Of a stretch of DNA of 64,000 nucleotides, positions 24,259 through 62,783 are shown piece after piece; position 1 is the first letter of the stretch; each line of letters opens with the position of its first letter. The stretch lies in assembly GCA_023399355.1 (NCBI GenBank), contig JAEWQC010000006.1:8422-72421 (forward strand), read 5' to 3'. The position numbers were made by a program, and so were the translations under genes. This DNA is from Bacillota bacterium (GTDB lineage Bacteria > Bacillota > Clostridia > Acetivibrionales > DTU013). Under the pieces are notes generated by a model that was not told where the DNA came from, searched no databases, and saw only the letters and a list, made by a program, of their open reading frames with translations.

Positions 24259-24291
24259 CATTTGCATGGACAATCAGGAAAGGTTGATTCT

Positions 24292-47430: not shown

Positions 47431-47766
47431 CTTCAAATAGATAAAAAAAACCTCCAATGTAAGAATTACCACATAGTATTTGCAGCGAAGTATCGCAGGC
47501 AAGTGATATTTGGGAAGATAAAGCAAGACATAGGAAAAATGCTAAGGGAGCTGTGCGAAAGAAAAGGAATAGAGATAATAGAAGCGGAGTGTTACAAAGA
47601 CCATGTACATATGCTCGTATGGATACCACCCAAATACAGCGTATCAGAGATTGTGGGTTATCTAAAAGGAAAAAGCTCACTGATGATATTTGATCGGTTC
47701 GCCAATTTAAAGTACAAATATGGCAACCGACATTTCTGGTGTAAGGGAAAAATATTAAGTATGTAA
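47431..47766 (+). mobile_element. tnpA: decayed IS200/IS605-family tnpA (Y1/HUH transposase) remnant
   Basis: The frame open from 47431 reads ..NLQCKNYHIVFAAKYRRQVIFGKIKQDIGKMLRELCERKGIEIIEAECYKDHVHMLVWIPPKYSVSEIVGYLKGKSSLMIFDRFANLKYKYGNRHFWCKGKILSM*. The HUH motif (HVHMLV) is present. No start codon exists for the first ~10 residues, and the C-terminal helix that carries the catalytic Tyr is missing. A GC-rich hairpin CCCCCGGC-tct-GCCGGGGG lies at 47396-47414, just upstream. Confidence 0.75.
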
Positions 47767-48707: not shown

Positions 48708-48724
48708 CATTTAAAGGCGTGGCA

Positions 48725-48817
48725 GCGGCAAAGTAAAGTACCGAGAAAACGGCAAGTAAAGTGAGGAAATCCGGCAATGAAATGTCAGAGATTTCGGCAA
48801 TGGAAGTGAGGATTTAG
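48725..48817. repeat. four degenerate ~23-bp tandem direct repeats (CGGCAA-N-GNAAGTGAGGAAAT-like)
   Basis: GCGGCAAAGTAAAGTACCGAGAAAA / CGGCAAGTAAAGTGAGGAAATC / CGGCAATGAAATGTCAGAGATTT / CGGCAATGGAAGTGAGGATTTAG, read directly from 48725-48817. Confidence 0.5.
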
Positions 48818-49067
48818 CCGAAACAGAACCCAATTGGTGATAGGATTTTTGTATCTTACCTCAAAAGGGGGACAAATGATTGGGGGATTTCGAAATGTAT
48901 TCAAAGATTCAGCAAGAAAAGGAACAGGGCTTTTCCCGAGAAACAGCAGCACGTCATCTGCCCTGTCTCCAATCGTCCCTTGTCTCCCCTGGCTCCAGAA
49001 AATAGGAGAATAATGAAAATTGTCGAAACATGTCGAGTTATAAGATATATGGCATATAAGTAAACCA

Positions 49068-49096
49068 TTGACATTTGACTTGGCGAAGATTATAAT
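49068..49096 (+). promoter_or_regulatory. perfect sigma-A/sigma-70 consensus promoter (TTGACA-17 nt-TATAAT)
   Basis: TTGACA at 49068-73, a 17-nt spacer TTTGACTTGGCGAAGAT, and TATAAT at 49091-96. It points toward loaP, whose ATG is at 49600. Confidence 0.55.
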
Positions 49097-49325
49097 ATAA
49101 ATCATCACATATTTTCCAATAATATGATGGTTTATGCACAAAAATGAAAGAAAAGTCTAGTAATCGTTTAAAAGCCAGATTAAGTGGAAACTCTCATAAA
49201 GAAGCTAAAAGAGCAGGATAGATGATGTTTCGATATATTGGTGGATTGATGAGAACATATAGCAATTATTGTGTATCTCATTTTTTGAAGGAAAGAAATT
49301 ACTCAAAAAAATTGTTATATAGTAA

Positions 49326-49506
49326 AAGTACTTATCGGCGGTTAATCTCTGGCGGGTCACGTTAATCGCTGATAAGTATTATATGATAAAAAATCGATTC
49401 AACCTACTATTTAGAATATGTCAGATGACGAAGATTTGTCGTTGGCTGATTTCAAGTACTTATTGGAAGTTGGGTGGCGGGTCGCTTGATGGAAGATAAG
49501 GATTAT
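49326..49506 (+). promoter_or_regulatory. duplicated ~55-nt hairpin element in the loaP leader
   Basis: Copy 1 (49326-49385) is AAGTACTTATCGGCGGTTAATCTCTGGCGGGTCACGTTAATCGCTGATAAGTATTAT. Its arms AGTACTTATCGGCG and CGCTGATAAGTATT form 14 bp including two G-U pairs. Copy 2 (49454-49506) is AAGTACTTATTGGAAGTTGGGTGGCGGGTCGCTTGATGGAAGATAAGGATTAT. Both copies share the apical TGGCGGGTC(A/G)C. Confidence 0.45.
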
Positions 49507-49599
49507 ACAGAGGTTAACCGCTAGTGTGCCAATTGGAAAAGTATGGCAGATAAAAGGGCGGAGCTGTATCTTGGCAGCATAGGCAGTGGAGGGGAACCA

Positions 49600-50148
49600 A
49601 TGTCTTTCTGGTATATATTTTGGGTCTTGACGGGTCATGAGAGAAAAATTGAAAACAGGATACAGAGTCAGTTGTGTAATGAGGACATCGTACCTTTTAT
49701 TCCCATGAGGGAAGTACTTTTTAAAAGAGCCGGTAAGGTGAAGAAAGAACTTAATATTGCGTTTCCGGGATACTTGTTTATCGAATCAGATTTGGAAAGC
49801 GTAGAGTTTTTACAACGCACACATCATTTTGTGAGAATATCAAAGGACATCATCGGGATCTTAAAATACAGTAATTCAAATGAGATTGCTGTCAGAGAAG
49901 AAGAGCGTGCAGCATTCTTGAGCTTATGTAATGTTAATCATTGTGTTGAGTCCTCAATGGGCTTTATTGAAGGAGATAAGTTTTACATTGAAAGCGGTCC
50001 TTTGGTTGGTATGGAAAACATTATAAAGGAGATTAACAGAAAAAAGATGGAAGCTTCTTTTGATATGGAGTTTCTGGGCGGAACAAGGCGGTTCACCGTA
50101 GGGCTTGAGTTATTGAGAAAAATAGAAATGGACAGTTCGATAATATAG
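49600..50148 (+). CDS. loaP: LoaP-type NusG paralog (processive antiterminator associated with polyketide clusters)
   Basis: ORF 49543-50148; ATG 49600 lies 5 nt after GGAGGGG. The NGN-like N-terminus is FWYIFWVLTGHERKIENRI...AFPGYLFIES. The KOW-like C-terminus is GDKFYIESGPLVGMENIIKEINRKK. The 182-aa protein lies directly upstream of an NRPS/PKS cluster. Confidence 0.7.
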   Translation: MSFWYIFWVLTGHERKIENRIQSQLCNEDIVPFIPMREVLFKRAGKVKKELNIAFPGYLFIESDLESVEFLQRTHHFVRISKDIIGILKYSNSNEIAVREEERAAFLSLCNVNHCVESSMGFIEGDKFYIESGPLVGMENIIKEINRKKMEASFDMEFLGGTRRFTVGLELLRKIEMDSSII

Positions 50149-50441
50149 ATAGGTGCTTGATGTGGAGAGTGTGCAATTTGGTGATTTCACAGTATATATT
50201 ATCAAAAATTAATGCAAATACAATTCTATGTCAATGTGAAATTCAAAATTTTAAATCTATCACACGAAAAACTTTGGATATATCGTGTGCAGCACCTATC
50301 AATCTACACACAAATTTACCATTAATGGTTGGCTTGAGTCATTCGCTGAGGGAAAAAGATATCAATTTTTTAATTTTACACTAAAGTAGCGATGTAAGAG
50401 TAATAATGGAGTTGTCGCGGGATGGCAGCACTGTGTAAAAG

Positions 50442-52010
50442 GTGAGTGAGAATATTATGAAAAACACATATGAGATCATTAATAACACGGAATATCCATA
50501 TGATCATTCAAAAACAGTGATTGACTATTTTGATCAGCAAGCTATGGAACATCCGGAAAATAAAGCTTTATATTTTTTGAAGGATTATATGACATATGGT
50601 GCCTTCCGGCAAAAAGTAAATCAACTTGCTAATTATTTGATCAGCTTGAATTTAAAGAATGCAGTTATTGGTGTTTTAATGGACAAATCATTTGATATGA
50701 TGATCGCCATATACGGTATACTGAAATCAGGTAACATATATATGCCGATTTCTCAGGATTATCCGGATCAAAGAATTTTATTTGTCTTAGAGGACAGTAA
50801 TGCTGCCATCGTTATCGTAAACAAAGATTCCTGCATACAATTAAGTAACATAAAATCGAACGTAAATTATTTAGATATTGAATATGAAAAGATCCAGGTT
50901 CAAAGCAATGAATGCAAAGCTCGTTGCCTTCCAAATGATTTGGCATATATTATTTATACATCAGGTACTACCGGCAATCCAAAAGGTGTTATGGTAGCCC
51001 ATCATTCTTTAATGAATCGCTTAAATTGGATGCAGCATACATACCGATTAACTGAAAATGATGTATTATTGCAAAAAACGTCGATATCGTTTGATGTTTC
51101 TTTATGGGAATTATTTTGGTGGCCTATGGCAGGAGCAAGTTTGTGTCTGCTTGCAAAAGGGCTTGAAAAATTTCCAATGGCATTAACTGAAATAATAGAA
51201 AAGTTTTCAATCTCAGTCATTCATTTTTGCCCTTCTTTGCTTAATTCGTTTTTAAATTATGTTATTGAAAACAAGAAAGAAGAATCAGTTAAATCGATAA
51301 GGCAAGTTATTTGCAGTGGCGAAGAATTACTCAAGTCGCATGTGGAGAAATTCAAGACAAGCTTGTATTTCAATAATAATACGCAGCTTGCAAATTTATA
51401 TGGGCCGACTGAGGCGACTATCGATGTCACTTTTTATAACTGCGATTTTACATTTATTCCGAACAAAATACCTATTGGCAAGCCCATCCATAATACTAGG
51501 GTTTATGTCATCGGGGACAATGATAAATTGATGCCCATTGGTGAAGAAGGTGAATTGTGTCTTTCGGGAGTTTGCCTGGCAAAAGGATACATAAATAATA
51601 AGGAATTAACTGAAAAACAATTTGTCTTATCTGGCATTGTAAAAGATACGTATTATAAAACGGGTGATTTGGTTAAGCTATTGCCTGATATGAATTTGGT
51701 ATTTCTTGGAAGAATAGATGAACAAGTAAAAATCAGGGGTTACAGGATTGAACTTGGAGAAATAGAAACTATTTTGGGAAAATACAATGGAATTCATGAA
51801 TGTTGTGTCATTCACAAAAAGGTTGATGATCTTAATTATTTAGTGGCATTTATAGTGGCAGATGAAAAATTGGACGAGAAAAGTTTGAGAGAATATGTAC
51901 ATCAATTTTTACCATACTATTGTGTTCCTAATAAGTATATTTATGTTGATAAACTGCCTGTGAATATGAGTGGAAAAGCTGATAAAAAGGCATTGCTCTC
52001 TATGATATAA
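50442..52010 (+). CDS. stand-alone adenylation enzyme (NRPS A domain; hand-derived specificity code resembles Ser)
   Basis: Core motifs: YTSGTTGNPKGV (A3), FDVSLWE (A4), NLYGPTEAT (A5), YKTGDL (A7), GRIDEQVKIRGYRIELGEIE (A8), NMSGKADKK (A10). The start may be ATG 50457. No C or T domain is present. Confidence 0.85.
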   Translation: MSENIMKNTYEIINNTEYPYDHSKTVIDYFDQQAMEHPENKALYFLKDYMTYGAFRQKVNQLANYLISLNLKNAVIGVLMDKSFDMMIAIYGILKSGNIYMPISQDYPDQRILFVLEDSNAAIVIVNKDSCIQLSNIKSNVNYLDIEYEKIQVQSNECKARCLPNDLAYIIYTSGTTGNPKGVMVAHHSLMNRLNWMQHTYRLTENDVLLQKTSISFDVSLWELFWWPMAGASLCLLAKGLEKFPMALTEIIEKFSISVIHFCPSLLNSFLNYVIENKKEESVKSIRQVICSGEELLKSHVEKFKTSLYFNNNTQLANLYGPTEATIDVTFYNCDFTFIPNKIPIGKPIHNTRVYVIGDNDKLMPIGEEGELCLSGVCLAKGYINNKELTEKQFVLSGIVKDTYYKTGDLVKLLPDMNLVFLGRIDEQVKIRGYRIELGEIETILGKYNGIHECCVIHKKVDDLNYLVAFIVADEKLDEKSLREYVHQFLPYYCVPNKYIYVDKLPVNMSGKADKKALLSMI

Positions 52011-52037: not shown

Positions 52038-52985
52038 ATGAATATTTCTCTTGTTTACCCGGGAGTCGGGTCGCAATATACCGGCATGGGTAAAGCGCAT
52101 TATGATCGGTTTAATATAGTCCGGGATACTTTTGATGAAGTGAGTGAGATTGCTAAAACCAATATAGCTACTATTTGTTTTGATAATGCTCGGAAAGAAG
52201 ACTTAAATATTCTTGCAAATGCCCAAATATGCATATTCACATTAAGTATTGCTTATCATAGATTATTGAATTTATATTTATCGATATCTCCCCGTTTTTG
52301 TTGCGGTTATAGTCTTGGAGAATATTCTGCTTTGTGCAGCTCAGGCGCGCTCAGTTTACATGACGCAGTAAAGCTAATAGAGTTGCGCTCAAAAATATTA
52401 CAGAAGATAACAGATTTAAAAATTGGAAGTATGCTCTGGATCGTTGAACTAGATGTAAATATGACGGAACAAATTTGTAAAGACTTGCGTGATGACGGAT
52501 ATTACATATATGTTTCAGGATACAATTCGCAAAAACAAACTGCCGTTTCAGGAGATAATACCTCAATAAAAAAAGCGATAGAGTTATTTGAGGAATTTGG
52601 TGCGTTGGTTATTCCTTTGGATTTATCGGGTCCATATCACTGTTCATTAATGCATGAAGCATTTGAATATATGAAAGACGTAACAGAAAAATATACATTT
52701 AAAAAATTATCGGATCCGGTCATAGCCAATTGGAATGCGTGTTTATATAAGGATGGACAATACTCTCAATACCTGATGAATCAATTGGTTCACCCCATAT
52801 ATTGGATGCAGACCATACAGAAGATATACAGCAGCAATCCGGATTTAATAATTGAGGTGGGACCTAAAGAAGTATTAACATATATTTCAAAAAAGAACTA
52901 TGCAGACGTGCATGCTTTATCAATAGATAAAATAGAAAATTTTGAGAGAATATGTGATCTTTGTGAAAATAATTGTATGCATTAA
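52038..52985 (+). CDS. discrete acyltransferase (FabD-like malonyl-CoA:ACP transacylase; trans-AT candidate)
   Basis: ORF 52023-52985; start ATG 52038. LVYPGVGSQYTGMG, active-site GYSLGEYSAL (GxSxG), and SGPYHCSLM. Confidence 0.8.
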   Translation: MNISLVYPGVGSQYTGMGKAHYDRFNIVRDTFDEVSEIAKTNIATICFDNARKEDLNILANAQICIFTLSIAYHRLLNLYLSISPRFCCGYSLGEYSALCSSGALSLHDAVKLIELRSKILQKITDLKIGSMLWIVELDVNMTEQICKDLRDDGYYIYVSGYNSQKQTAVSGDNTSIKKAIELFEEFGALVIPLDLSGPYHCSLMHEAFEYMKDVTEKYTFKKLSDPVIANWNACLYKDGQYSQYLMNQLVHPIYWMQTIQKIYSSNPDLIIEVGPKEVLTYISKKNYADVHALSIDKIENFERICDLCENNCMH

Positions 52986-53703
52986 GGGAATTGCTGTTTC
53001 TAAAATTAGTAAAAATGATAGTGATGATGAGTACAAAGTAGGCACAAAAGATATGTATGCTTTGAAAACAGCATTGGCATTAAAAGAAAGATATCCTTTA
53101 GTTATAGAAGTTATTTGTATGGCTCCTCACTCTTTATGTGATATTTTAAAAAGTCTATATATTTATGATATAAATAAGATTTATTTAGCAGCGGATAGCT
53201 TGTTTGCCGGCGCTGATACGTTTGCCACATCATTTGTCCTGCATAAGATGATAGAGAAAATAGGAATGGCAGATATCATATTATGCGGCAAGTCCAGTGA
53301 TGACAGCGGAACGGCGCAAATTGGTCCAAGTTTAGCTGAACGATTGAAATATGAGCTTATCAACAATATATCATCAATTGAAATCGATGGACATCATATT
53401 AAATGCGAAAGTAGTTCGGAAAAAATAAAATATATGATTGAAACAGAGCAATCAATAGTTGGCACAATTGATTGCCCACCTATTGATAGCACATACCCAT
53501 CGTTGAGAAATATTCTCGGACAAAAGAAAGATGTTACTATATTTAGTGCAAATGATTTAGGAATATCAATAAATCAGATACAATCAAAGACAAAAGTAGT
53601 AAAGTTATTTTCTTATGAAAAATCTGAAATCGGTGAGTTCATTACAGGAGATATTTCTGATATGGCAATAAAGTTTATTGATATTATTAAGTTATACAAT
53701 TAA
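52963..53703 (+). CDS. etfB: electron transfer flavoprotein beta subunit (EtfB-like)
   Basis: ORF 52942-53703; GTG 52963 gives VKIIVCIKGIA.... DMYALKTALALKE, GADTFATSFVLHKMI and DDSGTAQIGPSLAERL match the EtfB pattern. It overlaps the AT stop by 23 nt. Confidence 0.75.
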   Translation: MKIIVCIKGIAVSKISKNDSDDEYKVGTKDMYALKTALALKERYPLVIEVICMAPHSLCDILKSLYIYDINKIYLAADSLFAGADTFATSFVLHKMIEKIGMADIILCGKSSDDSGTAQIGPSLAERLKYELINNISSIEIDGHHIKCESSSEKIKYMIETEQSIVGTIDCPPIDSTYPSLRNILGQKKDVTIFSANDLGISINQIQSKTKVVKLFSYEKSEIGEFITGDISDMAIKFIDIIKLYN

Positions 53704-53708
53704 CCGTT

Positions 53709-54692
53709 ATGCAGCAAGAAGTAAGCATGTCATTTAAGAATGCAAGGGTTTGGGTATTTGGAGAACATGCCGATGGTGTGTTGTCCGGCATTTCACATCA
53801 GCTTTTAGGCATTGCATGCAAGCTTGCAAAAAAAATAGAATCAAAAATTATTATTGTATTGGTTGAATCAAATGAGACAATACATCGAGAGTGTATAGGT
53901 TATGGAGCAGACTATGTTATCAATGTATCTTCATATACCAATATTGATATTTTAGTTGACCTTGCTGACAAAATGCGGTTGATTGAAGAACCGGATATAG
54001 TTATATGCGGATCTACTGAATGGGGGATAAATCTTGCTCCAAGATTAGCTGTAAAATTAGGTGCAGGTTTGACGGCACATTGTGTCAACCTTGAGATATG
54101 CAGTGAAACTGGTCGTTTATTACAGACGCGGCCTACATCCTTTAATAATTTATTTGCGACAATTATCTCCACAAGTAAAATACAAATGGCGACTATAAAA
54201 CCAAATCTGTTTTCTCCCAGTATTATTGATCAAAATAAAAAAGGACAGGTTATAGAATATCAGTCTTCGGAGTTTAAAAATGGTTACACTCTGCAAAAAA
54301 TTATCCAATGTATTGAAGAGAATGCTGCGGATACTAACAGAATCATAATAGGAGTTGGAAATGGTATAGTAGATTATCAGGCATTTAAACTGGTTGAGTC
54401 TTTCGCCAATCTTATTCATGCGCCTATCTATGGATCACGGGAAGCTGTTGCTAAAGGATTGGTCGGGTTTGATCGACAGATTGGCATTACTGGTAAAACA
54501 ATTAATCCGAAATTATATATTGCAATAGGGATATCCGGCTCGCATAACCATTTGCTCGGGATTTCAAAAACTACGAAAATTGTTGCTATAAACACAGACA
54601 TTGGATCAGAAATGATAAAAGCAGCCAATTATAAAATTATATCGGATGCAAAGGATTTTCTTAAATTGATCCTTCAAAAAATTGTCGTTTAA
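53709..54692 (+). CDS. etfA: electron transfer flavoprotein alpha subunit (EtfA-like)
   Basis: 327 aa; the start may be ATG 53727. VWVFGEH..., and the C-terminal FAD region PKLYIAIGISGSHNHLLGISKTTKIVAINTDIGSEMIKAANYKIISD. Confidence 0.75.
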   Translation: MQQEVSMSFKNARVWVFGEHADGVLSGISHQLLGIACKLAKKIESKIIIVLVESNETIHRECIGYGADYVINVSSYTNIDILVDLADKMRLIEEPDIVICGSTEWGINLAPRLAVKLGAGLTAHCVNLEICSETGRLLQTRPTSFNNLFATIISTSKIQMATIKPNLFSPSIIDQNKKGQVIEYQSSEFKNGYTLQKIIQCIEENAADTNRIIIGVGNGIVDYQAFKLVESFANLIHAPIYGSREAVAKGLVGFDRQIGITGKTINPKLYIAIGISGSHNHLLGISKTTKIVAINTDIGSEMIKAANYKIISDAKDFLKLILQKIVV

Positions 54693-54718: not shown

Positions 54719-55573
54719 GTGATGAATAACATGGAATATAGTATTATCGAGATAGTACTGCGTTTTAATGGGAAATATTCACCAGGATATCAATATACTC
54801 CTGCTGAAAAAAACTCTTTACCGGTAATTTTACTTTGTCATGGAAATTATCAGGAAGGAAAGGATTCGAGAATTATACTGTCTATAGCAGAAAATTTAAC
54901 TAAAAAGGGTTTTATTGTAGTGACATTTGATAACCTTTGTTATAATAAAGCATGGAAACCCGATGATGGTGAAATTCACAGTTCTGAAGAAATTGATATG
55001 CGATGGGCGGCATTTGCTGCTATTACATATATCCGAAATAATTACATTGAAAAGAAAATAATTGTTATCGGACATTCTATGGGGGCTTCAATTGCGCTAT
55101 CAGTCAGTGCTTTGAGTGATTATATCAATGAAACTATTGCAATATCTCCAACAAGAATATCCGCATTTATTTTTGATGATAATGAATTAAATGATTTTTG
55201 GATGCAAAATAAAGACATTATTGAAACAAAAATTGATAAAAACGTTACGCGTTCAATTCGTTTAGATATGATGGCGGAAAATTACATCCCCTTTTTAAAT
55301 AAAAAGAGAACTCTATTTATCTGTGGATATAAAGAACGATATTATAATTATAAAAAATGGATTAAATCCCTGGCAGAGTCAATAGGAGAAAGTTGTGAAT
55401 CAATAATCATTCCCAATGCAGATCATTATTTTGGAATAACTCCCGGCAATGAAAATCAGGAAGTTTTTAACAATTTTATGAATAGTATATTTACATGGAT
55501 AAATAAAAAATACGGAGAGATTAATATAAACCTGGTGAATGAACAAAAGACTGTGAATGAAACTTTGAAATGA
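54719..55573 (+). CDS. alpha/beta-fold hydrolase
   Basis: 284 aa. LLCHGNY..., nucleophile elbow IGHSMGASIAL, and a late NADHYF (His). Confidence 0.7.
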   Translation: MMNNMEYSIIEIVLRFNGKYSPGYQYTPAEKNSLPVILLCHGNYQEGKDSRIILSIAENLTKKGFIVVTFDNLCYNKAWKPDDGEIHSSEEIDMRWAAFAAITYIRNNYIEKKIIVIGHSMGASIALSVSALSDYINETIAISPTRISAFIFDDNELNDFWMQNKDIIETKIDKNVTRSIRLDMMAENYIPFLNKKRTLFICGYKERYYNYKKWIKSLAESIGESCESIIIPNADHYFGITPGNENQEVFNNFMNSIFTWINKKYGEININLVNEQKTVNETLK

Positions 55574-55649: not shown

Positions 55650-56264
55650 ATGAATTGTTTTATATGCATATCCGGACTTGATGGCTCGGGTAAAACGACA
55701 CAATGCAAACTATTGTGTGAGTATCTATTGCAAGAAGATCCGATATATTATATTTTTGGAAACATAGAAGATAACAAGTACGTAAATAGAGCAACGATAA
55801 ACTACTTGAAAAAAACGAATTTGTTTTTAAACAATACGCAGAAACATCTTATCAAGTCGGCATTTCACATGTATTTTGACATTGAGCAGCTTACTCATAA
55901 TAAGTTCTATCATGACAGAATCGTAATTATGGACAGATATGTGGAAACGATATATGCACATGCCCAATTATATGGTTTAGAGCCGGAAATTATTAGTGAT
56001 ATCTTTAAAGATATATATATCAGACCTGATTTTTATTTATTTCTGGATCTTGACCCCGAAATATGTTACAAAAGGGTATTACAGAGAGGGAAAGCGGTCA
56101 GTACACATGAAGAATTATTCAATTTGATTGAACTGCATGAATTATATAAAAGTACAGTTAAGGAATTAGGTATAAAACTAATTGATGCGGACAGAACTCC
56201 TTCTGAAATACATCAAAGCATTGTTTCACATCTAAAGTTAAATAACACTGGAGAACTACGATAA
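55650..56264 (+). CDS. thymidylate-kinase-like P-loop (d)NMP kinase family protein
   Basis: 204 aa. ISGLDGSGKTTQCKLL (P-loop as in dTMP kinase), MDRYVETIYAHAQ (DRY-type motif) and a lid-like QRGKAVSTHE. Confidence 0.6.
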   Translation: MNCFICISGLDGSGKTTQCKLLCEYLLQEDPIYYIFGNIEDNKYVNRATINYLKKTNLFLNNTQKHLIKSAFHMYFDIEQLTHNKFYHDRIVIMDRYVETIYAHAQLYGLEPEIISDIFKDIYIRPDFYLFLDLDPEICYKRVLQRGKAVSTHEELFNLIELHELYKSTVKELGIKLIDADRTPSEIHQSIVSHLKLNNTGELR

Positions 56265-56376: not shown

Positions 56377-56613
56377 ATGTTGGAGAAAAGGATTCTGGAA
56401 ACAATAAAAGATAATCTTGAAATTAAAGTCGACCGCGATTTGGTGCCTGAAGACAATATTGAAGACTTGGGCATTGATTCCATAACCTTCATGGATGTTA
56501 TTGTCGGCTTGGAAGATGAATTCAACATTGAAATAGATGACGATAGACTTTTCTTTCCAAAAGGGAAAAAGCTGGAGTATATTATTAAAATGATAATGGA
56601 TACCATGGCTTAG
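56377..56613 (+). CDS. discrete acyl/peptidyl carrier protein 1
   Basis: 78 aa; GGAGGG RBS. LGIDSITFMDVIVGLEDEF (DSI phosphopantetheine site). Confidence 0.8.
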   Translation: MLEKRILETIKDNLEIKVDRDLVPEDNIEDLGIDSITFMDVIVGLEDEFNIEIDDDRLFFPKGKKLEYIIKMIMDTMA

Positions 56614-56805: not shown

Positions 56806-57828
56806 ATGATGAAATATAGATTGGATGAGAGTAAGTTAAGGTATCAGAATTCAGAAACAATTGATAGATTTAAATATATGTTGCAACGGCTGGAACCCGA
56901 AATACTTGAATTCCTGAAGACCATACCATATGCCCTAATTAATGGTGAGGCACTGTCAGTCATGGCATACGGGGATATCGGTTATCGTACATCCATGGAT
57001 TACGATTTTTTAGTTTCGATCAAGCATTCTAAAGAGATTAAAAGTGCTTTCTTTGAGCACGGCTATGTTGAGTTTTTATATGATAAAAACGGAAACGCAA
57101 GAAAGCCAACCCGCAAAGAACAGATCATGCTTATCAATGCAAATCGCTTAACCGCATTTGAAAAGTTAACAGAGGATGGGATAAAACTTTCTTTTGATTT
57201 TAATACCGGCATTTTTTGGAGTGAATATAGAGGAAAACAAATTGATATTGAAGAGTTTGTGTCAGATGCTGAAGAAGTTCAGATCCATGGCGTCAAATTG
57301 AAAATGTTAACTGACATAAAGTGCTTTATTCAAACTTGTTTGCATCACTACATATTGATGAATTCACCTTTTCATTTGTTTGAGCCTAGAAAACTTGTGA
57401 TGACTGAATGTTGGTTTCAAGACATTTATTATCTTTATAAATCTCAGATCCATAAAAAAACGCATATGTTAGAGACTTTTATAAATGAATATGAGCTTCA
57501 AGATGAATTCTTTTATGTGCTGTATTATACCAGTGTTGTTTTCCAGGACAACGAGCTGTATAATTTTGCACAAATATTCAGAACCGAATCGGGTATGGAA
57601 AAGTTGAATCAATTTGGCCTCAGCGACAGTGAAAGAAAAACCTGGCCAATTTCATTTGAAGAAAGAATGAATCATCCCCAACTATTTAAGGTACTCAAAC
57701 CATTAATGAACGATAGAGAACTTGAAAAAATCATAAAGAATTCAACAAGGACAACTTATCGTATGGAGATGTCGACTGATTACACTTATGATCCCTACTT
57801 TTATGAAAAATCGCGGAAAGTGAAATGA
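56806..57828 (+). CDS. nucleotidyltransferase-family protein (NTP_transf_5-like)
   Basis: 340 aa; AGGAGG RBS. LINGEALSVMAYGDIGYRTSMDYDFLVSIKHSKEIKSAFFEHGY fits the G..L......R...D.D.LV pattern of the uncharacterised nucleotidyltransferase family. Confidence 0.5.
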   Translation: MMKYRLDESKLRYQNSETIDRFKYMLQRLEPEILEFLKTIPYALINGEALSVMAYGDIGYRTSMDYDFLVSIKHSKEIKSAFFEHGYVEFLYDKNGNARKPTRKEQIMLINANRLTAFEKLTEDGIKLSFDFNTGIFWSEYRGKQIDIEEFVSDAEEVQIHGVKLKMLTDIKCFIQTCLHHYILMNSPFHLFEPRKLVMTECWFQDIYYLYKSQIHKKTHMLETFINEYELQDEFFYVLYYTSVVFQDNELYNFAQIFRTESGMEKLNQFGLSDSERKTWPISFEERMNHPQLFKVLKPLMNDRELEKIIKNSTRTTYRMEMSTDYTYDPYFYEKSRKVK

Positions 57829-57950: not shown

Positions 57951-58217
57951 ATGATTAATCAAAACAACAGTAAAATAAAAAGTATACTAAAAAACTACAT
58001 AATGGAAGATATTTTGTTAGGAGACCGGAGTTTTGAGATCAACGATGATACTGCATTGATTAATGATAACATCATTGATTCTATCAATCTGATGAAATTG
58101 ATTTCCTTTATAGAGAAGAAGATGAATATTACCTATAGCCACGACGATTATTCTGTTGATAATTTTAACACCATTAATGACATCGTTGAATTAATAAATA
58201 AAAAATGTGAGGAGTAA
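57951..58217 (+). CDS. discrete carrier protein 2
   Basis: 88 aa. NIIDSINLMKLISFIEKKM (DS site). Confidence 0.75.
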   Translation: MINQNNSKIKSILKNYIMEDILLGDRSFEINDDTALINDNIIDSINLMKLISFIEKKMNITYSHDDYSVDNFNTINDIVELINKKCEE

Positions 58218-58222: not shown

Positions 58223-58483
58223 ATGGAAAGAAAAGTTATAGGAGATACCATACTTTGTCTTATTAAAGAAGAACTGGAAATCAGCACCAGCCAAAAGGTT
58301 GAATTAACATCGAAATTATTAAGCATAGGAATAGACTCGATAGCAATGATGACATTGTTAGTCTTTATCGAAGAAAAGTTTAATTTTGCGGTAGATGAAG
58401 ATGTGCTGATTTCCAATCGTTTTGTAACAGTAAACGAAATTGTTGATTATGTTGAAGAAAAAACCAATAAGAACATTGCATGA
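58223..58483 (+). CDS. discrete carrier protein 3
   Basis: 86 aa; starts 5 nt after carrier protein 2. LSIGIDSIAMMTLLVFIEEKF. Confidence 0.75.
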   Translation: MERKVIGDTILCLIKEELEISTSQKVELTSKLLSIGIDSIAMMTLLVFIEEKFNFAVDEDVLISNRFVTVNEIVDYVEEKTNKNIA

Positions 58484-58531: not shown

Positions 58532-59647
58532 GTGGACTTTAGTTTTGACAATGAATCTGTTGAATTGGCTGAACATACAAAGCAATTCATTATAAATGAA
58601 ATCAATCCTATACTGATAAATTGCAAAACATCTTTCTCTCCAAAAGCATGGAATGCGTGTTGTGACTTTGGATTGACGGGCATTACTTTTGATGCTTCAT
58701 ATGGAGGATTAGGAGTTGGCCCTGTCACAGCAGTGCTTTTGGTGGAGACATTGGGAAGACATTGTAATGACAATGGGTTCGTATTTGCATTAACAAATCA
58801 TGTTTTTGCTGCGGGAATCAGTATATATCTTTTTGGAAGACCGTCAATAAAGAGAAAATACATGGAAGGATTAATCAGTGGACAAGCAATAGGCGCTTAT
58901 GCAATTACCGAAGAAGTATCAGGATCAGACGCATTCAATATGAAAACAACGTATAGAAAAGTTGGAAGCGAATACATACTAAACGGATTCAAAACTTTTA
59001 TAACAAACGGTCCGATTGCTTCTACATTCATTGTATTCGCAAAATCTGAAGACGAAAATAAAATATCTGCATTTATTCTTGATAAAAATAATGACAAACT
59101 TAACGTCGGCATGCCTTTGAAAAAATTAGGCCTTGCATGTGCACCAATGTCTGAGATAAAAATGAAAGACTATAATATAGGTGAAGACCATATATTAGGG
59201 AAAGAAGGAGACGGAAAGTTAATATTCAACCATGTGATCCAATGGGAAAGATGTTATAACATGGCAGCTTGTTTGGGAATAATGAAAAAGAACCTTGAGG
59301 TATCCATTAGAAGGGTACTTGATAAAAAACTTGGTAAACATCAAAGCATAAGCAACAAGATCGCAGATATGAAAATAGCGATAGAACTCAGTGAATTATC
59401 TTTATATAAAAGTGCATGGTTATTAGAGAATAAAAAGTCATGCTATCTTGAATCTGCTATAGCCAAATATTACACAAGTCAAAACTACATACAAGCATGT
59501 TTGGATTTGCTTAATATTCACGGGGCGTATGGATATATTGAAGAAACAAAAATAGGTTCTGAAATAAATGACGCACTTGCATCCAGCATTTATTCCGGTA
59601 CAAATGATATATTAAAAAACATCATAGCCAGATATTGTAATATATAA
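58532..59647 (+). CDS. acyl-CoA (acyl-carrier-protein) dehydrogenase-family flavoenzyme
   Basis: 371 aa; GTG start after AGGAGA. GAYAITEEVSGSDAF, FITNGPIAS, and a C-terminal YGYIEE...DALASSIYSGTNDILKNIIAR. This is the typical ACAD three-domain layout. Confidence 0.85.
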   Translation: MDFSFDNESVELAEHTKQFIINEINPILINCKTSFSPKAWNACCDFGLTGITFDASYGGLGVGPVTAVLLVETLGRHCNDNGFVFALTNHVFAAGISIYLFGRPSIKRKYMEGLISGQAIGAYAITEEVSGSDAFNMKTTYRKVGSEYILNGFKTFITNGPIASTFIVFAKSEDENKISAFILDKNNDKLNVGMPLKKLGLACAPMSEIKMKDYNIGEDHILGKEGDGKLIFNHVIQWERCYNMAACLGIMKKNLEVSIRRVLDKKLGKHQSISNKIADMKIAIELSELSLYKSAWLLENKKSCYLESAIAKYYTSQNYIQACLDLLNIHGAYGYIEETKIGSEINDALASSIYSGTNDILKNIIARYCNI

Positions 59648-59660: not shown

Positions 59661-62600
59661 ATGATTTGTTACTATGATATGTCAGAACAGCAAAAACAAT
59701 TATATGTAGCACAAAATATAGCAGGAAACAACAATTTATATACGCTCTCTTTTACGATGACCTTTGAAGGTAACCTGGATTGCCCTTGTTTATATAAATC
59801 AATACAAAAAGTATTTGATTATAATGAAATATTAAAAAGCCGGATTGTAGACTGCGGAGATGTCGCCAAACTAACAATTGATTGCGGTGATGTAAAAATT
59901 GAATATGTTGAAAATTCTTCTGCAGATATCAATGATTATATCGCATCGGAAAATATCGACTTAAAATCAGATGCACTATATAAAATCAAACTAATAAAAA
60001 TAATGAATGATCTGCATATACTTTATTTTTCATTCCATCATATTATAATAGACGGAGACTCAATAAAACTTTTCTGCGACTCACTTAGAAAGACTTATAA
60101 TGAAGAATTAAATACAGTAAAGCAAGCAGTTAAAAACCCTCAGTTAAGTCAAAATAAAAGCTTAAGTTATTTCGATTATATATTCTACCAAGATATTTTT
60201 AGAAAAAGCAGCTTTTACCGTCAACAAAAAGAATATTTTCAAGATCAATTCAAAGATCAATATAATTTCCTTGACTTTCCGGGTATACAGGCTGAAATAC
60301 ACAATTTATATGATTCGGACTCTGAAAGTCTTTTATTTGATTTCAATACTTTTGTTGAGATGCAAAAGTATGCATTGGCAAATAAGATTCAGATAAATTC
60401 TCTATTTTTATCTGGATTAGCATTGCTGTTAAGCAGTTATTGCGACACTGACGATATTGCAATTGGTTGTATTTCAAATGGAAGAGAGAACAATATCTTA
60501 TTTAAAAATATTATTGGTTTCTTCTCCAATATAATGGCACTGCGGTTAAAGCTTGAGCCTGAAATGAATTTCAAAGACTTTATATCATATGTGAATGAAA
60601 AGATAAAAGAAGGCTTAATAAATCAGGACTATTCTTATGGTGAAATAGTGCGGGACATGAACGCATACGGAAACAGGAGCAATAAATCACTAATTCAAGT
60701 TATTTTTAACATGCAGAAATCCTATGACATAAAAAATCAATGGGACAGTATTCATAAAGTTAGTTTTAAACTTAATGAAAAAGATAAGATTAACTATGAC
60801 CTGATAATAGATATAAAATATAGTAACGAAGAAGTTATTATTAAAATAGAGTATTCGAACAAAATATTTTCAAGTTCATTAATAAAAAGGCTTGTCAAGA
60901 ATTATCAATATGTCCTGGAAAACATTTTAAAGAATCTTAATTGCCCTCTTGTTGGTGTGCCATGTGTCAATACCAGTGAACAAGAGCTTGTTTTAAAGAG
61001 CTTTAATAATACGTTTGAAGTAATAAAATATAAAAATATTTTTGATATATTCTTTGAATCTATGAATAACAATCTCGATAAGCTGGCCATTATAGATGAG
61101 GATATGCAATTTACCTATGGTGAAATAAAAAAATACATAAACAGCTTTGTTTCTGTTTTATTAAAGAATAAGACAGAAAAAGAAATTATCGCTTTATTAT
61201 TGGACCGCTCTTCTTTATATGTTATCAGCTTATTAAGTGTTTTAAGTGTCAATGCAGCCTTTGTACCCATTGATCCAAGCATACCGGAAGAAAATAAAAT
61301 AAGCATTTTGAAGGACTGCTCTGTTAAAAGGATCATCACTTCAAAATCTTATAAAGATATGGCGGAAAATTTAAAAAATGAAATAAAAGAAACCTTAATT
61401 GTATATGCGGATGATATAGATGTTCATGAAGTCGATTACAAAATGCCCATAATCGCACCTCGCGATTTAGCGTATGTAATATTCACATCCGGTACTACAG
61501 GCACCCCAAAAGGGGCGATGATAAATCATGAGAACCTTGTAAATCTTTTTTTGCTATTTAAGAAGTTTTTTAATATCAGCAATGAAAACAGAATCATACA
61601 ATTTGCCAATATCTCATTTGATGCTTCAATATGGGAAATATTTATGGCGTTATACCATGGGGCTACACTTTATATTCCTCCCAAAACCGTTATTTTAGAC
61701 ACACATGATTTTTGCAAGTATATCGACACATATCAAATCGATACAATGACTCTGCCCCCGGTATATGCAAGACAATTAGAAAATTATAAATTGAAATCAA
61801 TAAAAAAATTAATTGTAGCCGGATCTGTTTCTTTTCATGAAGATTATATTCAATGGAAAGATAAAGTTAATTTTTATAACGCTTATGGATTGACAGAAAC
61901 TACCATATGCGTAACTGTCTATAATGGAAATGATGGAACTTGTAAAAGTTATAAAAACGAGCTCTCGGTTGGCAAACCTGCTCCTAACACTAAATTATTC
62001 ATTTTGGATAAATGGAATAGAATCACGCCAATGGGAGTTACGGGGGAATTATATGTTTCAGGTAAATGTTTAAGCAATGGATATATTAACAATGAGTTTT
62101 TAACTGAAGAAAAGTTTCTTTCGAATAAATATTCTGATAACAGTAAAATGTACAGAACCGGCGATCTGGCTCTGTGGTTAGAAGATGGAAGCATTATCAT
62201 TACAGGCAGAAATGATGAACAAATAAAAATAAAAGGTATACGAATTGAATTGCCGGCTATCGAGAGTGTCTATTTAAGACATGAGAAAATTAATCAGTTT
62301 GCGGTTGTAGCATCAAAAAGAAACAACGATTACATGATAAAAGCATTCTATACTGCAGAGGACAAACTAGATGAAGAAGATTTGAGAAATTATGGGAATC
62401 AAAAATTACCCGGATATATGATCCCTCACCAGTTTATAAGATTAGAAAAGCTACCGATTTCCAATAGCGGAAAGATAGATAAAAAACATCTTCTAAGTGT
62501 AGATACAACTCAAAAACATCTTGATGGAAAAAACGTTGGCAACAAAATATGCGAATCGGTAACAGATAAGATTTATACCATTGTATCAGGCTTGACAGAA

Positions 62601-62783
62601 CACGACATTGATTTTGATGATAATTTTTTTGAAATGGGACTGGATTCATATTTGTTGATGTTTCTTAGAAATGAAATACTGGAAATTTTCAATGTTGATA
62701 TTCGAATCGTAGAATTATTTAAATACACAACAATAAATTCTCTAGGTGAATATTTGGCAAATCTTTTACAGATAACCGTCTGA
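59661..62783 (+). CDS. NRPS module C-A-T (A-domain code identical to GrsA Phe)
   Basis: 1040 aa. C domain HHIIIDGDS. A domain FTSGTTGTPKGA, FDASIWE, NAYGLTETT, YRTGDL, GRNDEQIKIKGIRIELPAIE and SNSGKIDKK. T domain FFEMGLDSYLLM. Confidence 0.9.
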   Translation: MICYYDMSEQQKQLYVAQNIAGNNNLYTLSFTMTFEGNLDCPCLYKSIQKVFDYNEILKSRIVDCGDVAKLTIDCGDVKIEYVENSSADINDYIASENIDLKSDALYKIKLIKIMNDLHILYFSFHHIIIDGDSIKLFCDSLRKTYNEELNTVKQAVKNPQLSQNKSLSYFDYIFYQDIFRKSSFYRQQKEYFQDQFKDQYNFLDFPGIQAEIHNLYDSDSESLLFDFNTFVEMQKYALANKIQINSLFLSGLALLLSSYCDTDDIAIGCISNGRENNILFKNIIGFFSNIMALRLKLEPEMNFKDFISYVNEKIKEGLINQDYSYGEIVRDMNAYGNRSNKSLIQVIFNMQKSYDIKNQWDSIHKVSFKLNEKDKINYDLIIDIKYSNEEVIIKIEYSNKIFSSSLIKRLVKNYQYVLENILKNLNCPLVGVPCVNTSEQELVLKSFNNTFEVIKYKNIFDIFFESMNNNLDKLAIIDEDMQFTYGEIKKYINSFVSVLLKNKTEKEIIALLLDRSSLYVISLLSVLSVNAAFVPIDPSIPEENKISILKDCSVKRIITSKSYKDMAENLKNEIKETLIVYADDIDVHEVDYKMPIIAPRDLAYVIFTSGTTGTPKGAMINHENLVNLFLLFKKFFNISNENRIIQFANISFDASIWEIFMALYHGATLYIPPKTVILDTHDFCKYIDTYQIDTMTLPPVYARQLENYKLKSIKKLIVAGSVSFHEDYIQWKDKVNFYNAYGLTETTICVTVYNGNDGTCKSYKNELSVGKPAPNTKLFILDKWNRITPMGVTGELYVSGKCLSNGYINNEFLTEEKFLSNKYSDNSKMYRTGDLALWLEDGSIIITGRNDEQIKIKGIRIELPAIESVYLRHEKINQFAVVASKRNNDYMIKAFYTAEDKLDEEDLRNYGNQKLPGYMIPHQFIRLEKLPISNSGKIDKKHLLSVDTTQKHLDGKNVGNKICESVTDKIYTIVSGLTEHDIDFDDNFFEMGLDSYLLMFLRNEILEIFNVDIRIVELFKYTTINSLGEYLANLLQITV

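Follow-up and report, generated by a model that had tools for sequence, protein, structure and literature searches.

The free-standing adenylation (A) protein encoded at 50442..52010 (+ strand) of the 64-kb stretch of DNA analysed here (the window) is, judging by its specificity code and its relatives, almost certainly a serine-activating enzyme similar to ZmaJ and ClbH-A1, and, together with the acyltransferase (AT) encoded next to it, it most likely feeds an aminomalonyl unit into a hybrid peptide–polyketide assembly line. As a polyketide extender unit, aminomalonyl-ACP is rare, and few pathways are known to use it: those of zwittermicin, colibactin, guadinomine and lumiquinone (PMC5055756). 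The reading favoured in the present study, with moderate confidence, is a pathway from seryl-ACP to aminomalonyl-ACP, where a ZmaJ-type A enzyme and a ZmaF-like AT would supply an AT-less PKS, and a dehydrogenase of the ACAD fold (ACAD) with an electron transfer flavoprotein (Etf) would perform the flavin-dependent step. An aminomalonyl-ACP pathway had been suggested in a preliminary description of this DNA; the serine-type A protein, the ZmaF-like AT and the ZmaG/ZmaH-like genes of sister loci speak for it, but the ACAD and the carriers do not correspond to the zwittermicin parts they had been matched with.

The serine-type adenylation enzyme and the adjacent acyltransferase

Pfam searches revealed AMP-binding (267 bits) and AMP-binding_C domains in the ORF 50442-52010, and neither a C nor a T domain; the core motifs A3, A5, A7, A8 and A10 are intact in the translation. 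The intact free A domain reported earlier is retained, but its start is probably to be moved to ATG 50457, which lies a short distance 3′ of an AGGTGA sequence; GTG 50442 belongs to this Shine–Dalgarno sequence, and the orthologous proteins have 517 aa. An exact-sequence look-up with the protein translated from the GTG gave no match, the gene having probably been called from another start.

The specificity code DVWHISLIDK was obtained both by counting from the FDxS motif and by a separate MAFFT column mapping; the two agree with each other and with the preliminary description. The same columns return DAWTIAAICK, the textbook Phe code of GrsA, for the A domain of the NRPS encoded in the cluster, and DVWHFSLIDK for ZmaJ and ClbH-A1, which indicates that the register is correct. 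The code of the window protein is identical to the latter at 9/10 positions and is common to its orthologues in sister loci (L010, L007, L011 and L008, 73–91% identity, with L007 and L011 at 80–84%), and the pattern DVWH.SL[IV]DK is present in all of the 120 best database relatives. The protein shares 42% identity with ZmaJ and 37% with ClbH-A1, versus 32% with the in-cluster NRPS A domain, and the earlier assignment of serine specificity gains support from both the code and these identities. ZmaJ, taken from a Bacillus cereus locus where zmaD-E-R-F-G-H-I-J-K are all present in this order, is likewise a free serine A protein of ~520 aa; in colibactin biosynthesis (the pks island of E. coli), by contrast, the serine A domain is the first domain of the NRPS ClbH. 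Serine activation for aminomalonyl-ACP has been reported for both ZmaJ and ClbH-A1 (PMC6395733; PMC5055756). When the contigs of reference genomes were scanned with the A protein, all matches were generic NRPS A domains (23–35% identity), with no close relative among them, and the loci carrying these domains contain no Zma-like parts.

Several relatives with 40–43% identity bear the automatic JGI name 'D-alanine--poly(phosphoribitol) ligase subunit 1', and the A protein scores 310 bits with the DltA subfamily model of NCBIfam, as would be expected if the enzyme were a generic acyl-CoA ligase, or a D-alanine carrier ligase like DltA, acting outside secondary metabolism. This score, however, does not reach the DltA cut-offs of 476 and 560, whereas the score with the model for amino-acid adenylation domains exceeds its own (394.7 vs 317.4), and such an identity is contradicted by the serine code in 120/120 relatives and by the location of the gene within an NRPS/PKS operon; it was rejected on the NCBIfam cut-offs and the code, and is considered extremely improbable.

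The discrete AT (52038..52985, +; Pfam Acyl_transf_1), whose start coincides with that given earlier, is encoded immediately 3′ of the A gene in 5/5 loci and is the single AT across the inspected loci of the cluster family. It shows 38% identity to ZmaF and 29% to ClbG. Besides PGVGSQ, it has the motifs GYSLG, GPYH and a hydrophobic L-V-I at the RXR site, which differ from those of FabD and ZmaK-AT and agree with those of ZmaF, where GYSLG is identical, GPFH corresponds to GPYH and the RXR site is hydrophobic as well. Malonyl-CoA ATs have R/K at the L-V-I site, and the motifs match those reported for ATs taking ACP-tethered extender units (PMC4207774, tables 2-3), the comparison covering few characterised enzymes and ClbG itself retaining GHSLG where the window AT has GYSLG. 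At the level of sequence, the AT is thus predicted to be specific for an ACP-tethered unit, like ZmaF and ClbG.

Organisation of the cluster and its sister loci

The cluster occupies an island of 33% GC that is led by a LoaP gene and extends beyond the window. At the island border the composition profile falls from ~50% to 33% GC, and a fragment of an IS200-type transposase is located there (47503..47766, +; Pfam Y1_Tnp, profile positions 20-100 of 121). The first island gene (49543..50148, +) encodes a LoaP-type NusG paralogue, a processive antiterminator (Pfam NusG; NCBIfam NF033641 antiterm_LoaP, 149.4 bits vs a cut-off of 125); it heads the operon, and all genes 3′ of it are co-oriented and closely spaced, as in a LoaP-controlled antibiotic operon. 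A putative promoter, the 12/12 consensus match TTGACA-17-TATAAT (49068..49096, +), lies ~450 nt 5′ of LoaP and is the best such match in 47–64 kb; an Rfam scan of the cluster leader found no known RNA element. A possible relic of a DAHP synthase gene (50190..50360, +; a weak match, 35% over 57 aa) corresponds to residues 149-205 of an intact DAHP synthase in L002 (E 1e-5 within the window).

The A, AT, EtfB and EtfA genes follow closely on one another, at distances of 27, −44 and 5 nt, with the gene for the Etf beta subunit (EtfB, 52942..53703, +; Pfam ETF) overlapping the 3′ end of the AT gene by 44 nt and being followed by that for the alpha subunit (EtfA, 53709..54692, +; Pfam ETF, ETF_alpha); this pair, between the AT and hydrolase genes, had been overlooked earlier. 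The next genes encode an alpha/beta hydrolase (54719..55573, +; Pfam Abhydrolase_1 and related), conserved after the AT in L008/L009 and L010, and a dTMP-kinase-like P-loop kinase (55650..56264, +; Pfam Thymidylate_kin, 75.7 bits; TIGR00041, 76.5, under the cut-off of 83), conserved in the cluster family. An NTP_transf_5 family protein (56806..57828, +; PF14907, 43.8 bits) is conserved in L001, L003, L004 and L010.

The three carriers listed in the preliminary description are indeed free carriers, but none is an orthologue of ZmaH. ACP1 (56377..56613, +; PP-binding, 45.7 bits; orthologues in L010, 88%, and L011_ACP78, 51%) has no detectable similarity to ZmaH. ACP2 (57951..58217, +) scores 17.7 bits with PP-binding, below the Pfam cut-off of 20.8, and has a DSI serine motif and orthologues at 85–89% (89% to L002_ACP88); it is the only visible carrier with weak similarity to ZmaH, ZmaD and ClbE (29%, E 2e-9; 32%; 27%). 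ACP3 (58223..58483, +; PP-binding, 39.2 bits) has orthologues at 68–82%. The ACAD gene is followed by that of the Phe-type NRPS module C-A-T (59661..62783, +; Pfam Condensation, AMP-binding, PP-binding) and by the start of an AT-less PKS gene (62803..64000, +), which continues past the window end and whose KS shows the motifs TACSTS, HGTGT and NIGH in translation. In L001, where this gene is identical, and in its orthologues in L002 and L003, the predicted architecture is KS, RhiE-like linker, KR, ACP and C, with no AT; an AT-less PKS module that could receive an aminomalonyl unit is present. For the ACAD and the NRPS, exact look-ups led to nothing but a 7.7-kb twin contig.

No ZmaG or ZmaH orthologue was found in the cluster part of the 64-kb window, in line with the preliminary description, which had noted no ZmaG-like dehydrogenase in the part then visible. 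A ZmaG/FkbK-like gene is found instead in the sister loci L007 and L011, where the gene order is GT2, 3HCDH, ACP84, A, AT, EtfB, EtfA and the 3HCDH gene is directly 5′ of ACP84-A. The sister 3HCDH is 54% identical to ZmaG and 46% to ClbD; ACP84 is 49% identical to ZmaH and is the best match of ClbE in the compared set (33%), so that counterparts of both zwittermicin proteins stand beside the A gene in these loci. ACP84 adjoins the A gene in L007 and L011, is also seen in L023 and L024, and has a 65% relative in L008. A metagenome scan with the sister 3HCDH yielded L023 and a 1-kb fragment, L024; in L023 the 3HCDH gene, again 5′ of ACP84, stands with it at the cluster end, followed by no A-AT-Etf genes and having no flanks in common with the window, which indicates that 3HCDH-ACP84 and A-AT-Etf are two separable units. 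The L008/L009 variant keeps ACP-A-AT, with neither 3HCDH nor Etf at the usual positions, and this joint absence hints at a shared role of 3HCDH and EtfBA. The gene order of the window looks like a permutation of that of the sister clusters, with the possible DAHP synthase relic just 5′ of the A gene, and extrapolation from the 80–84% identical relatives suggests that ZmaG/ZmaH-type genes may lie further along the source contig. The window's only 3HCDH gene (18237-19217) was weighed as a ZmaG counterpart and rejected (33% identity to ZmaG, host region of ~47% GC, BKACE/thiolase catabolic operon). The cluster family was found in none of 185,579 reference genomes and comprises at least five sequence variants, only in metagenome assemblies; L002 and L007 lie on the same contig. 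The phosphotransacetylase of the host matches database sequences at 70% identity at best, and its named relatives, at ~60%, are scattered over several phyla.

The ACAD-fold dehydrogenase and the EtfB/EtfA pair

The ACAD noted in the preliminary description is present (58532..59647, +; three ACAD Pfam domains), but it is not the counterpart of ZmaI: placed against ZmaI, ZmaE and ClbF, it falls into a separate NJ clade and represents an AnaB/PigA-type acyl-carrier-protein dehydrogenase. PDB searches gave 281 bits with AnaB, 230 with 6cxt_B and 205 with PigA, versus at most 175 with generic ACADs, and FkbI was absent among the best 60 PDB matches. Identity to ZmaI, ZmaE and ClbF is 26–29%, compared with 34–36% within that group; ClbF is 34–35% identical to each of ZmaI and ZmaE and 27% to the window ACAD. 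The window protein has YSGT, i.e., Ser in place of the glutamate of canonical YEGT, and an AnaB/PigA-type 'WER' Glu, whereas ZmaI, ZmaE and ClbF retain (I/V)EG(T/S); zwittermicin biosynthesis differs in having a ZmaI-type ACAD, the sole ACAD here carrying its catalytic Glu elsewhere. Alignments to 4irn, 6cxt_B and 5zw0 show the 'WE(R/K)' Glu and no Glu at the YEGT position, and it is precisely this Glu that is replaced in PDB 6af6 relative to 5zw0 (WEK to WAK). AnaB, PigA and the Bmp3-like 6cxt_B share the WE(R/K) Glu and the Ser at YEGT with the window ACAD, and their substrates are carrier-bound alpha-aminoacyl thioesters; the role of the glutamate in prolyl-S-carrier dehydrogenases and the dehydrogenation of alpha-aminoacyl-S-carrier thioesters by the AnaB/PigA clade have been described (PMC10849742).

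The similarity to AnaB prompted a pyrrole-type reading (Pro-A, PCP, ACAD), which was rejected: the cluster contains no Pro-specific A domain, the free A protein having a Ser code and the NRPS a Phe code, and, in a further difference from the AnaB/PigA systems, the ACAD scores below the NCBIfam equivalog cut-offs for PigA (308.9 vs 500) and RedW (263.8 vs 650). To our knowledge, AnaB/PigA/Bmp3-like dehydrogenases come from aerobes and have no dedicated Etf. The ACAD and EtfB/EtfA genes of the window belong to one operon, 3.8 kb apart, and EtfBA is the probable redox partner; the nearest ACAD relatives from outside the cluster (44–46%) are encoded adjacent to EtfB-EtfA (L021, L022), once also with an ACP, the closest outgroup (46%) being part of an ACP-ACAD-EtfB-EtfA operon. 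Unlike clostridial Bcd, the ACAD lacks the Bcd-type catalytic glutamate, and the location of its gene among carrier genes in an NRPS/PKS operon makes an ACP-bound substrate more probable than a CoA ester. Its conserved neighbours are ACP2-ACP3 and the NRPS, not the A gene, and for this reason it may serve another substrate.

The best PDB matches of EtfB (orthologues in L010, L007 and L011, 69–85%) are B subunits of bifurcating-type Etfs (4kpu_B, CarD). EtfA gave 156 bits with CarE, 147 with 4kpu_A and 141 with 5ol2_A versus 80 with human ETF; overall, the scores are 141–156 bits against CarE/CarD, 4kpu, 7koe and 5ol2, and at most 80 against non-bifurcating ETFs. Both subunits thus rank with the bifurcating lineage, as represented by clostridial Bcd-EtfAB, CarCDE and AcrABC. 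The usual physiological direction in this lineage is reductive, the NADH-linked members normally driving enoyl reduction. The clb island has no Etf, and the window cluster differs from that of zwittermicin in its EtfB/EtfA genes, its permuted gene order and its low-GC, anaerobe-like, LoaP-controlled context. A literature search for Etf within NRPS/PKS clusters found nothing relevant.

Predicted pathway, competing readings and implications

In the favoured scheme, the A enzyme would convert L-serine to seryl-AMP and load the seryl group onto a discrete carrier, at the thiol of its phosphopantetheine, and the seryl thioester would be oxidised twice to give aminomalonyl-ACP. The first oxidation (alcohol to aldehyde) would be performed by a ZmaG/ClbD-type NAD-dependent dehydrogenase, seen beside the A gene in the sister clusters only; the second, flavin-dependent one would probably be performed by the AnaB/PigA-type ACAD instead of a ZmaI/ClbF-type enzyme, with the electrons passing to the cluster-encoded EtfB/EtfA (52942-54692), which would make the pathway O2-independent. 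The ZmaF-like AT, 27 nt 3′ of the A gene, would then supply the AT-less KS-KR-ACP module that follows the Phe-specific NRPS module with the aminomalonyl unit. The identity of the serine-loaded carrier and the roles of the ACAD and Etf are the parts of this scheme that we infer. Colibactin biosynthesis follows the same logic, with a serine A domain (37%), a discrete ACP, a counterpart of the sister 3HCDH (46%) and a discrete AT (29%).

The A protein might instead belong to a split NRPS module, loading serine as an ordinary residue on a free carrier that is the acceptor (or donor) substrate of a C domain, with the AT acting as a malonyl trans-AT. A candidate partner is the terminal C domain of the PKS in L002 and L003, a domain lacking A-T, and the genes following there are not A-T; L008/L009 keeps ACP-A-AT with no 3HCDH/Etf nearby, the window has no ZmaG/ZmaH orthologue, and the AT-less KS module requires some AT, of which a single one is seen in the inspected loci. 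This reading is nevertheless unlikely: the AT lacks both the His of GHSxG and the basic RXR residue and is ZmaF-like at both sites, genes for proteins 46–54% identical to characterised ZmaG/ZmaH-like ones flank the A gene in L007/L011, and aminomalonyl sub-clusters are recognised by the combination of a free Ser-A, a 3HCDH and separately encoded ACP and AT proteins (PMC6395733). A rather less remote, though still doubtful, alternative keeps the serine enzyme and the AT in an aminomalonyl pathway and assigns to ACAD-EtfBA the oxidation or reduction of an acyl or aminoacyl starter bound to ACP2/ACP3, before the C domain of the NRPS joins it to Phe; a reduction would run from NADH through Etf to the ACAD, and the ZmaI-type step would fall to a further ACAD outside the inspected sequence or to another enzyme. 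The window, L001, L010 and L002 share the order ACP2, ACP3, ACAD, NRPS, and the ACAD-NRPS adjacency extends to L003-L006; the NRPS opens with a C domain requiring a carrier-bound donor, the Etf ranks with NADH-linked Etfs of the reductive type, and the ACAD clade is known to modify starter aminoacyl thioesters, prolyl to pyrrolyl or pyrrolinyl (PMC10849742). Against it, only Ser and Phe A domains were seen, two further ligases of the sister clusters scoring as acyl-CoA-ligase-like; EtfBA travels with A-AT and not with the ACAD; and ~60 kb of inspected sister-cluster sequence contains no ZmaI-type ACAD. A ZmaI-type ACAD or another AT may nevertheless be encoded in the 54 kb of the source contig outside the window or in ~6 kb of the L002/L007 contig.

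Within the favoured aminomalonyl pathway, a more specific proposal can be put forward tentatively: an O2-independent route to aminomalonyl-ACP, where the ZmaI/ClbF-type enzyme would be replaced by an AnaB/PigA-type dehydrogenase wired to a bifurcating-lineage EtfAB, the aldehyde-to-acid step would be coupled to NAD+ (or ferredoxin) and not to O2, and, more broadly, carrier-dependent ACADs paired with Etfs of their own would recur as a module in the secondary metabolism of anaerobes, as the L021 operon suggests. A literature search yielded no relevant account of aminomalonyl pathways from anaerobes, and we know of no established physiological electron acceptor for the FkbI/ZmaI/ClbF reaction class.

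An aminomalonyl extender installs a reactive alpha-amino group. Acyl-Phe extended with aminomalonate and ketoreduced might give a 2,4-diamino-3-hydroxy-5-phenylpentanoyl unit, which resembles the pharmacophores of statine-type protease inhibitors. The cluster family would add an aminomalonyl pathway from uncultured, apparently anaerobic bacteria, and, if the ACAD-Etf assignment is true, it shows a flavin-dependent oxidation re-engineered for life without oxygen and offers a testable electron acceptor for the FkbI/ZmaI/ClbF reaction class.

A free-standing adenylation enzyme with a serine code

The ORF at 50442-52010 of the plus strand encodes a 522-aa protein in which Pfam recognises AMP-binding (267 bits) and AMP-binding_C and no other domain; it is therefore a free-standing adenylation enzyme (A), as the preliminary description had stated. 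The NCBIfam model for amino-acid adenylation domains matches it at 394.7, above the cut-off of 317.4, and readings as DltA or an acyl-CoA ligase were rejected, the NCBIfam models for both being below cut-off. The core motifs TSGTTGNPKG, NLYGPTE, YKTGD, GRIDEQVKIRGYRIELGEIE and the lysine of SGKADKK are intact. The start adopted earlier is less likely, because four orthologues, as called elsewhere, begin at the residue-6 methionine and a Shine-Dalgarno sequence (AAAAGGTGAGTGAGAATATTATG) lies ahead of ATG 50457; the real gene is most likely 50457-52010, with GTG 50442 as part of the ribosome-binding site.

The specificity code was counted by hand from the FDxS motif, indel-free to position 278, with the remainder placed via the (I)xSGE, YGPTE and GK motifs; this independent count and MAFFT column mapping both bore out the code proposed previously, D V W H I S L I D K. 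The same columns return DAWTIAAICK, identical at 10/10 positions to the textbook GrsA phenylalanine code, from the C-A-T module of the NRPS at 59661-62783, and DVWHFSLIDK from both ZmaJ (zwittermicin) and ClbH-A1 (colibactin), which provides an internal control on the register. DVWHISLIDK is kept in 4/4 orthologues (73-91% identical), and all of the best 120 database relatives read DVWH.SL[IV]DK. The enzyme very probably activates serine, an assignment as safe as any sequence-based call.

Identity is 42% with ZmaJ and 37% with ClbH-A1 but drops to 32% with the NRPS A domain of the same cluster, and the match to ZmaJ, together with the serine code, upholds the suggested correspondence between the two. 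In zwittermicin biosynthesis, L-serine is loaded on ZmaH by ZmaJ and then oxidised to (2S)-aminomalonyl-ACP through the action of ZmaG and ZmaI (PMC6395733); in colibactin biosynthesis, ClbH-A1, ClbE, ClbD and ClbF perform the equivalent steps (PMC5055756). The colibactin references used here were clbD-clbH of E. coli CFT073, as annotated in RefSeq. The locus of one relative of A, P0163 from B. cereus (42%), has the order ACP, ACAD, GNAT resistance, AT, 3-hydroxyacyl-CoA dehydrogenase (3HCDH), ACP, ACAD, A and large NRPS-PKS, matching zmaD-E-R-F-G-H-I-J-K of the zwittermicin cluster.

The island and its sister clusters

In the composition profile, GC content is about 50% up to 47-48 kb and about 33% beyond, a sharp drop coinciding with the end of a 6088-aa surface-protein gene and an IS200 Y1 transposase fragment (47503-47766); taken as a whole, the cluster has the look of a horizontally acquired island. 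At the border (47300-49500) there are also short fragments, TPR-like and other. The giant cell-surface protein is a single ORF (29039-47305) ending at the island border, and its translation, inspected by eye, contains RCC1-like repeats, many Ig-like repeats and an apparent C-terminal SLH region. The region upstream of 47 kb represents anaerobe-like ordinary metabolism, with phosphotransacylase and kinase genes, Fe-S flavoproteins and a BKACE/thiolase operon; this host catabolic operon (15364-23677) comprises genes for an SDR, an acetyl/acetoacetyl-CoA-synthetase-like protein, a 3HCDH (18237-19217), a cyclase, BKACE, a thiolase and an MFS transporter. At 24129-24211, directly ahead of the gene for a 1036-aa hybrid histidine kinase/response regulator (24262-27372), lies a c-di-GMP-I riboswitch (RF01051, 69.3 bits).

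Past the GC border, all genes lie on the plus strand with short gaps, in the order LoaP antiterminator (above the NCBIfam cut-off), A, AT (52038-52985), EtfB (52942-53703, overlapping AT by 44 nt), EtfA (53709-54692), alpha/beta hydrolase, dTMP-kinase-like protein, ACP1 (56377-56613), NTP_transf_5 protein, ACP2 (57951-58217), ACP3 (58223-58483), ACAD (58532-59647), the C-A(Phe)-T NRPS and a KS gene (from 62803) running off the window end; in an identical 7.7 kb twin contig and in relatives, the KS gene encodes an AT-less KS-KR-ACP-C protein. The NRPS opens with a C domain and therefore requires a carrier-bound donor. A putative promoter, perfectly matching the sigma-70 consensus TTGACA-17-TATAAT (49068-49096), is located some 450 nt ahead of the LoaP gene, with a long leader in between; in Rfam, the cluster leader has no match. 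The dTMP-kinase-like P-loop kinase (55650-56264) and the NTP_transf_5 protein (56806-57828) are both conserved throughout the cluster family; tailoring or self-resistance via phosphorylation or nucleotidylation are possibilities for them.

The cluster family was found in metagenome assemblies only, and a scan of 185,579 reference genomes revealed no close relative. In the sister clusters L007 and L011, the A gene (product 84% and 80% identical, respectively, to that of the window) lies in the order GT2, 3HCDH (281 aa), ACP (84 aa; ACP84), A, AT, EtfB, EtfA, and L007 is on the same contig as the ACP-ACP-ACAD-NRPS-PKS block of locus L002. This 3HCDH shares 54% identity with ZmaG and 46% with ClbD; ACP84 shares 49% with ZmaH, and within the sequence set compared no protein matches ClbE better. 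Thus, a ZmaG-type dehydrogenase, reported earlier as not visible, exists in the family where zwittermicin logic predicts it, and its absence from the cluster part of the window stands, tblastn having found neither ZmaG- nor ZmaH-type genes there. The window's only 3HCDH (18237-19217) was rejected as a ZmaG counterpart, being 33% identical to ZmaG and belonging to the host catabolic operon.

Gene order is permuted in the window and in L010, its 91% relative: the block from the A gene comes first. A weak DAHP synthase relic between LoaP and A (50190-50360; 35% over 57 aa) matches an intact DAHP synthase at the front of the L002 arrangement, and may be a trace of the rearrangement that brought A-AT-Etf forward. 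In locus L023, GT2-3HCDH-ACP84 comes last and is not followed by A-AT-Etf, which shows that the two blocks are separable. Extrapolation from the L002/L007 order predicts ZmaG- and ZmaH-type genes for the window cluster about 30 kb beyond ACP2, outside the window and inside the 118 kb source contig. In the variant L008/L009 (8774-14616), GT2-ACP-A-AT is kept, and the 3HCDH (before ACP) and EtfBA (after AT) are both absent from these positions; IS110 copies lie near this variant. The sister clusters (L007 1-9000, L011 1-9000, L023 1-10000) contain extra conserved genes for a DUF362-4Fe4S protein, two acyl-ligase-like enzymes, a HemN-like radical SAM protein, a citrate-lyase-ligase-like protein (ACP-fused in L008/L009), GT2 and a 73-aa Cys-rich protein (..DKECGxCGCEYD..); these genes are probably also present past the window end in the source cluster.

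Acyltransferase, carriers, ACAD and Etf pair

In ATs using ACP-tethered extender units, Tyr replaces the His of GHSxG; ZmaF, an aminomalonyl-ACP-specific AT, has GYSLG (PMC4207774, tables 2 and 3), GPFH at the YASH site, and a hydrophobic I-A-I where malonyl-CoA ATs carry Arg/Lys (FabD R-A-L) (PMC4207774). The window AT and three orthologues have GYSLG, GPYH and L-V-I (or I-V-I, I-V-V) at these positions, a motif rule that rests on few characterised enzymes, the aminomalonyl AT ClbG of colibactin keeping GHSLG. All four have PGVGSQ where ZmaF has PGVGSH and FabD PGQGSQ. With 38% identity to ZmaF (29% to ClbG) and ZmaF-type motifs, the AT is, at the sequence level, the counterpart of the dedicated zwittermicin AT that the preliminary description took it for. 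No second AT was found in any inspected locus of the cluster family, and the only PKS module seen is AT-less, a picture in keeping with a single PKS module supplied with a single unusual extender unit.

Two other proposed correspondences were not borne out. ACP1, ACP2 and ACP3 each carry the DSI serine motif (ACP1 and ACP3 above the Pfam threshold; ACP2 below it, at 17.7 bits, yet with 85-89% orthologues); their equation with ZmaH is not supported, because none is an orthologue of ACP84 and ACP2 alone is weakly similar to ZmaH, ZmaD and ClbE (27-32%, E 1e-6 to 2e-9). The ACAD, described as a ZmaI counterpart, shares no more than 27-29% identity with ZmaE and ZmaI and 27% with ClbF, those three being mutually 34-36% identical. 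Its best structural-database matches are the prolyl-ACP dehydrogenase AnaB (281 bits), 6cxt_B (230 bits), which we take to be the pyrrole-forming enzyme Bmp3, and PigA (205 bits), with generic ACADs at no more than 175 bits and FkbI not among the best 60; ZmaI matches generic short-chain ACADs best (195 bits), then FkbI (152) and AnaB (139). In alignments, Ser replaces the canonical catalytic glutamate of the window ACAD (IYSGT vs. YEGT) and the glutamate of the 'WE(R/K)' motif is present, whereas ZmaI, ZmaE and ClbF retain the canonical residue and carry Gly in the 'WE(R/K)' position. The PigA entries 5zw0 and 6af6 differ at exactly the 'WE(R/K)' glutamate (WEK vs. WAK), and the conserved catalytic glutamate of AnaB/Bmp3 is described as the base deprotonating C2 of the prolyl thioester (PMC10849742).

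A neighbour-joining tree gave ZmaI, ZmaE and ClbF their own clade and grouped the window ACAD with AnaB/PigA and a large clostridial family; the enzyme is thus neither ZmaI-like nor like butyryl-CoA dehydrogenases (Bcd), the other placement considered, and by sequence falls within the aminoacyl-carrier dehydrogenases, on an Etf-associated branch of that clade. In both inspected outgroups (46% and 44%), the nearest non-cluster relatives, EtfB and then EtfA directly follow the ACAD: L021 (229-3410), where an 80-aa PP-binding protein and the end of a PLP enzyme precede the operon, and L022 (8001-10932). This suggests that Etf-coupled carrier-protein dehydrogenases may be a wider class in anaerobes. 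The EtfB/EtfA pair of the window (52942-54692), which the first account lacked, lies within the NRPS/PKS operon, translationally coupled to the AT gene. Both proteins score about twice as high against bifurcating-type anaerobe Etfs (a set including CarDE, Acidaminococcus 4kpu, Thermotoga 7koe and C. difficile 5ol2) as against human, Paracoccus and Methylophilus ETFs, and EtfBA accompany A-AT in the window, L010, L007 and L011.

Proposed pathway and its alternatives

The A enzyme would make seryl-AMP and acylate a discrete ACP; a ZmaG-type dehydrogenase, placed by synteny in the relatives and presumed for the window contig, would convert the side-chain alcohol to the aldehyde. The AnaB-type ACAD would then strip the alpha-proton and beta-hydride from the hydrated aldehyde, yielding aminomalonyl-ACP and passing electrons to EtfBA; formally, this step would equal the alpha,beta-dehydrogenation of an alpha-aminoacyl thioester, as the clade performs with prolyl thioesters. 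The ACP of the KS-KR-ACP module would receive the unit from the ZmaF-like AT, and the module would condense it with an acyl-Phe thioester from the C-A(Phe)-T module. We regard the aminomalonyl pathway as a whole as fairly probable, and the assignment of ACAD-Etf to aminomalonyl oxidation as tentative, at somewhat under an even chance.

Unseen sequence, amounting to about 6 kb in the L002/L007 contig and 54 kb in that of the window, leaves room for two other readings. Serine might be an ordinary NRPS building block supplied via a split module, with the AT a plain malonyl trans-AT; this is improbable, and has to be set beside the ZmaF-type AT motifs and the 3HCDH next to A in the sister clusters. 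Alternatively, ACAD-Etf might act, possibly reductively, on a starter held by ACP2/ACP3, with a ZmaI-type step encoded in the unseen part; this is unlikely, though less so. Every Etf needs a flavoprotein dehydrogenase to work with, and the AnaB-type ACAD is the one candidate in the sequence seen.

A literature search of incomplete coverage found no paper on Etf genes within an NRPS/PKS cluster or on an aminomalonyl pathway in anaerobes, and novelty is unproven. The A domain itself is of a known kind, serine-activating and ZmaJ/ClbH-A1-like. The cassette is a new variant, pairing ZmaJ-, ZmaF-, ZmaG- and ZmaH-like parts with a dedicated EtfBA and an ACAD that is AnaB-type and non-orthologous, and its setting is a low-GC island under LoaP control in an uncultured anaerobe-like organism.
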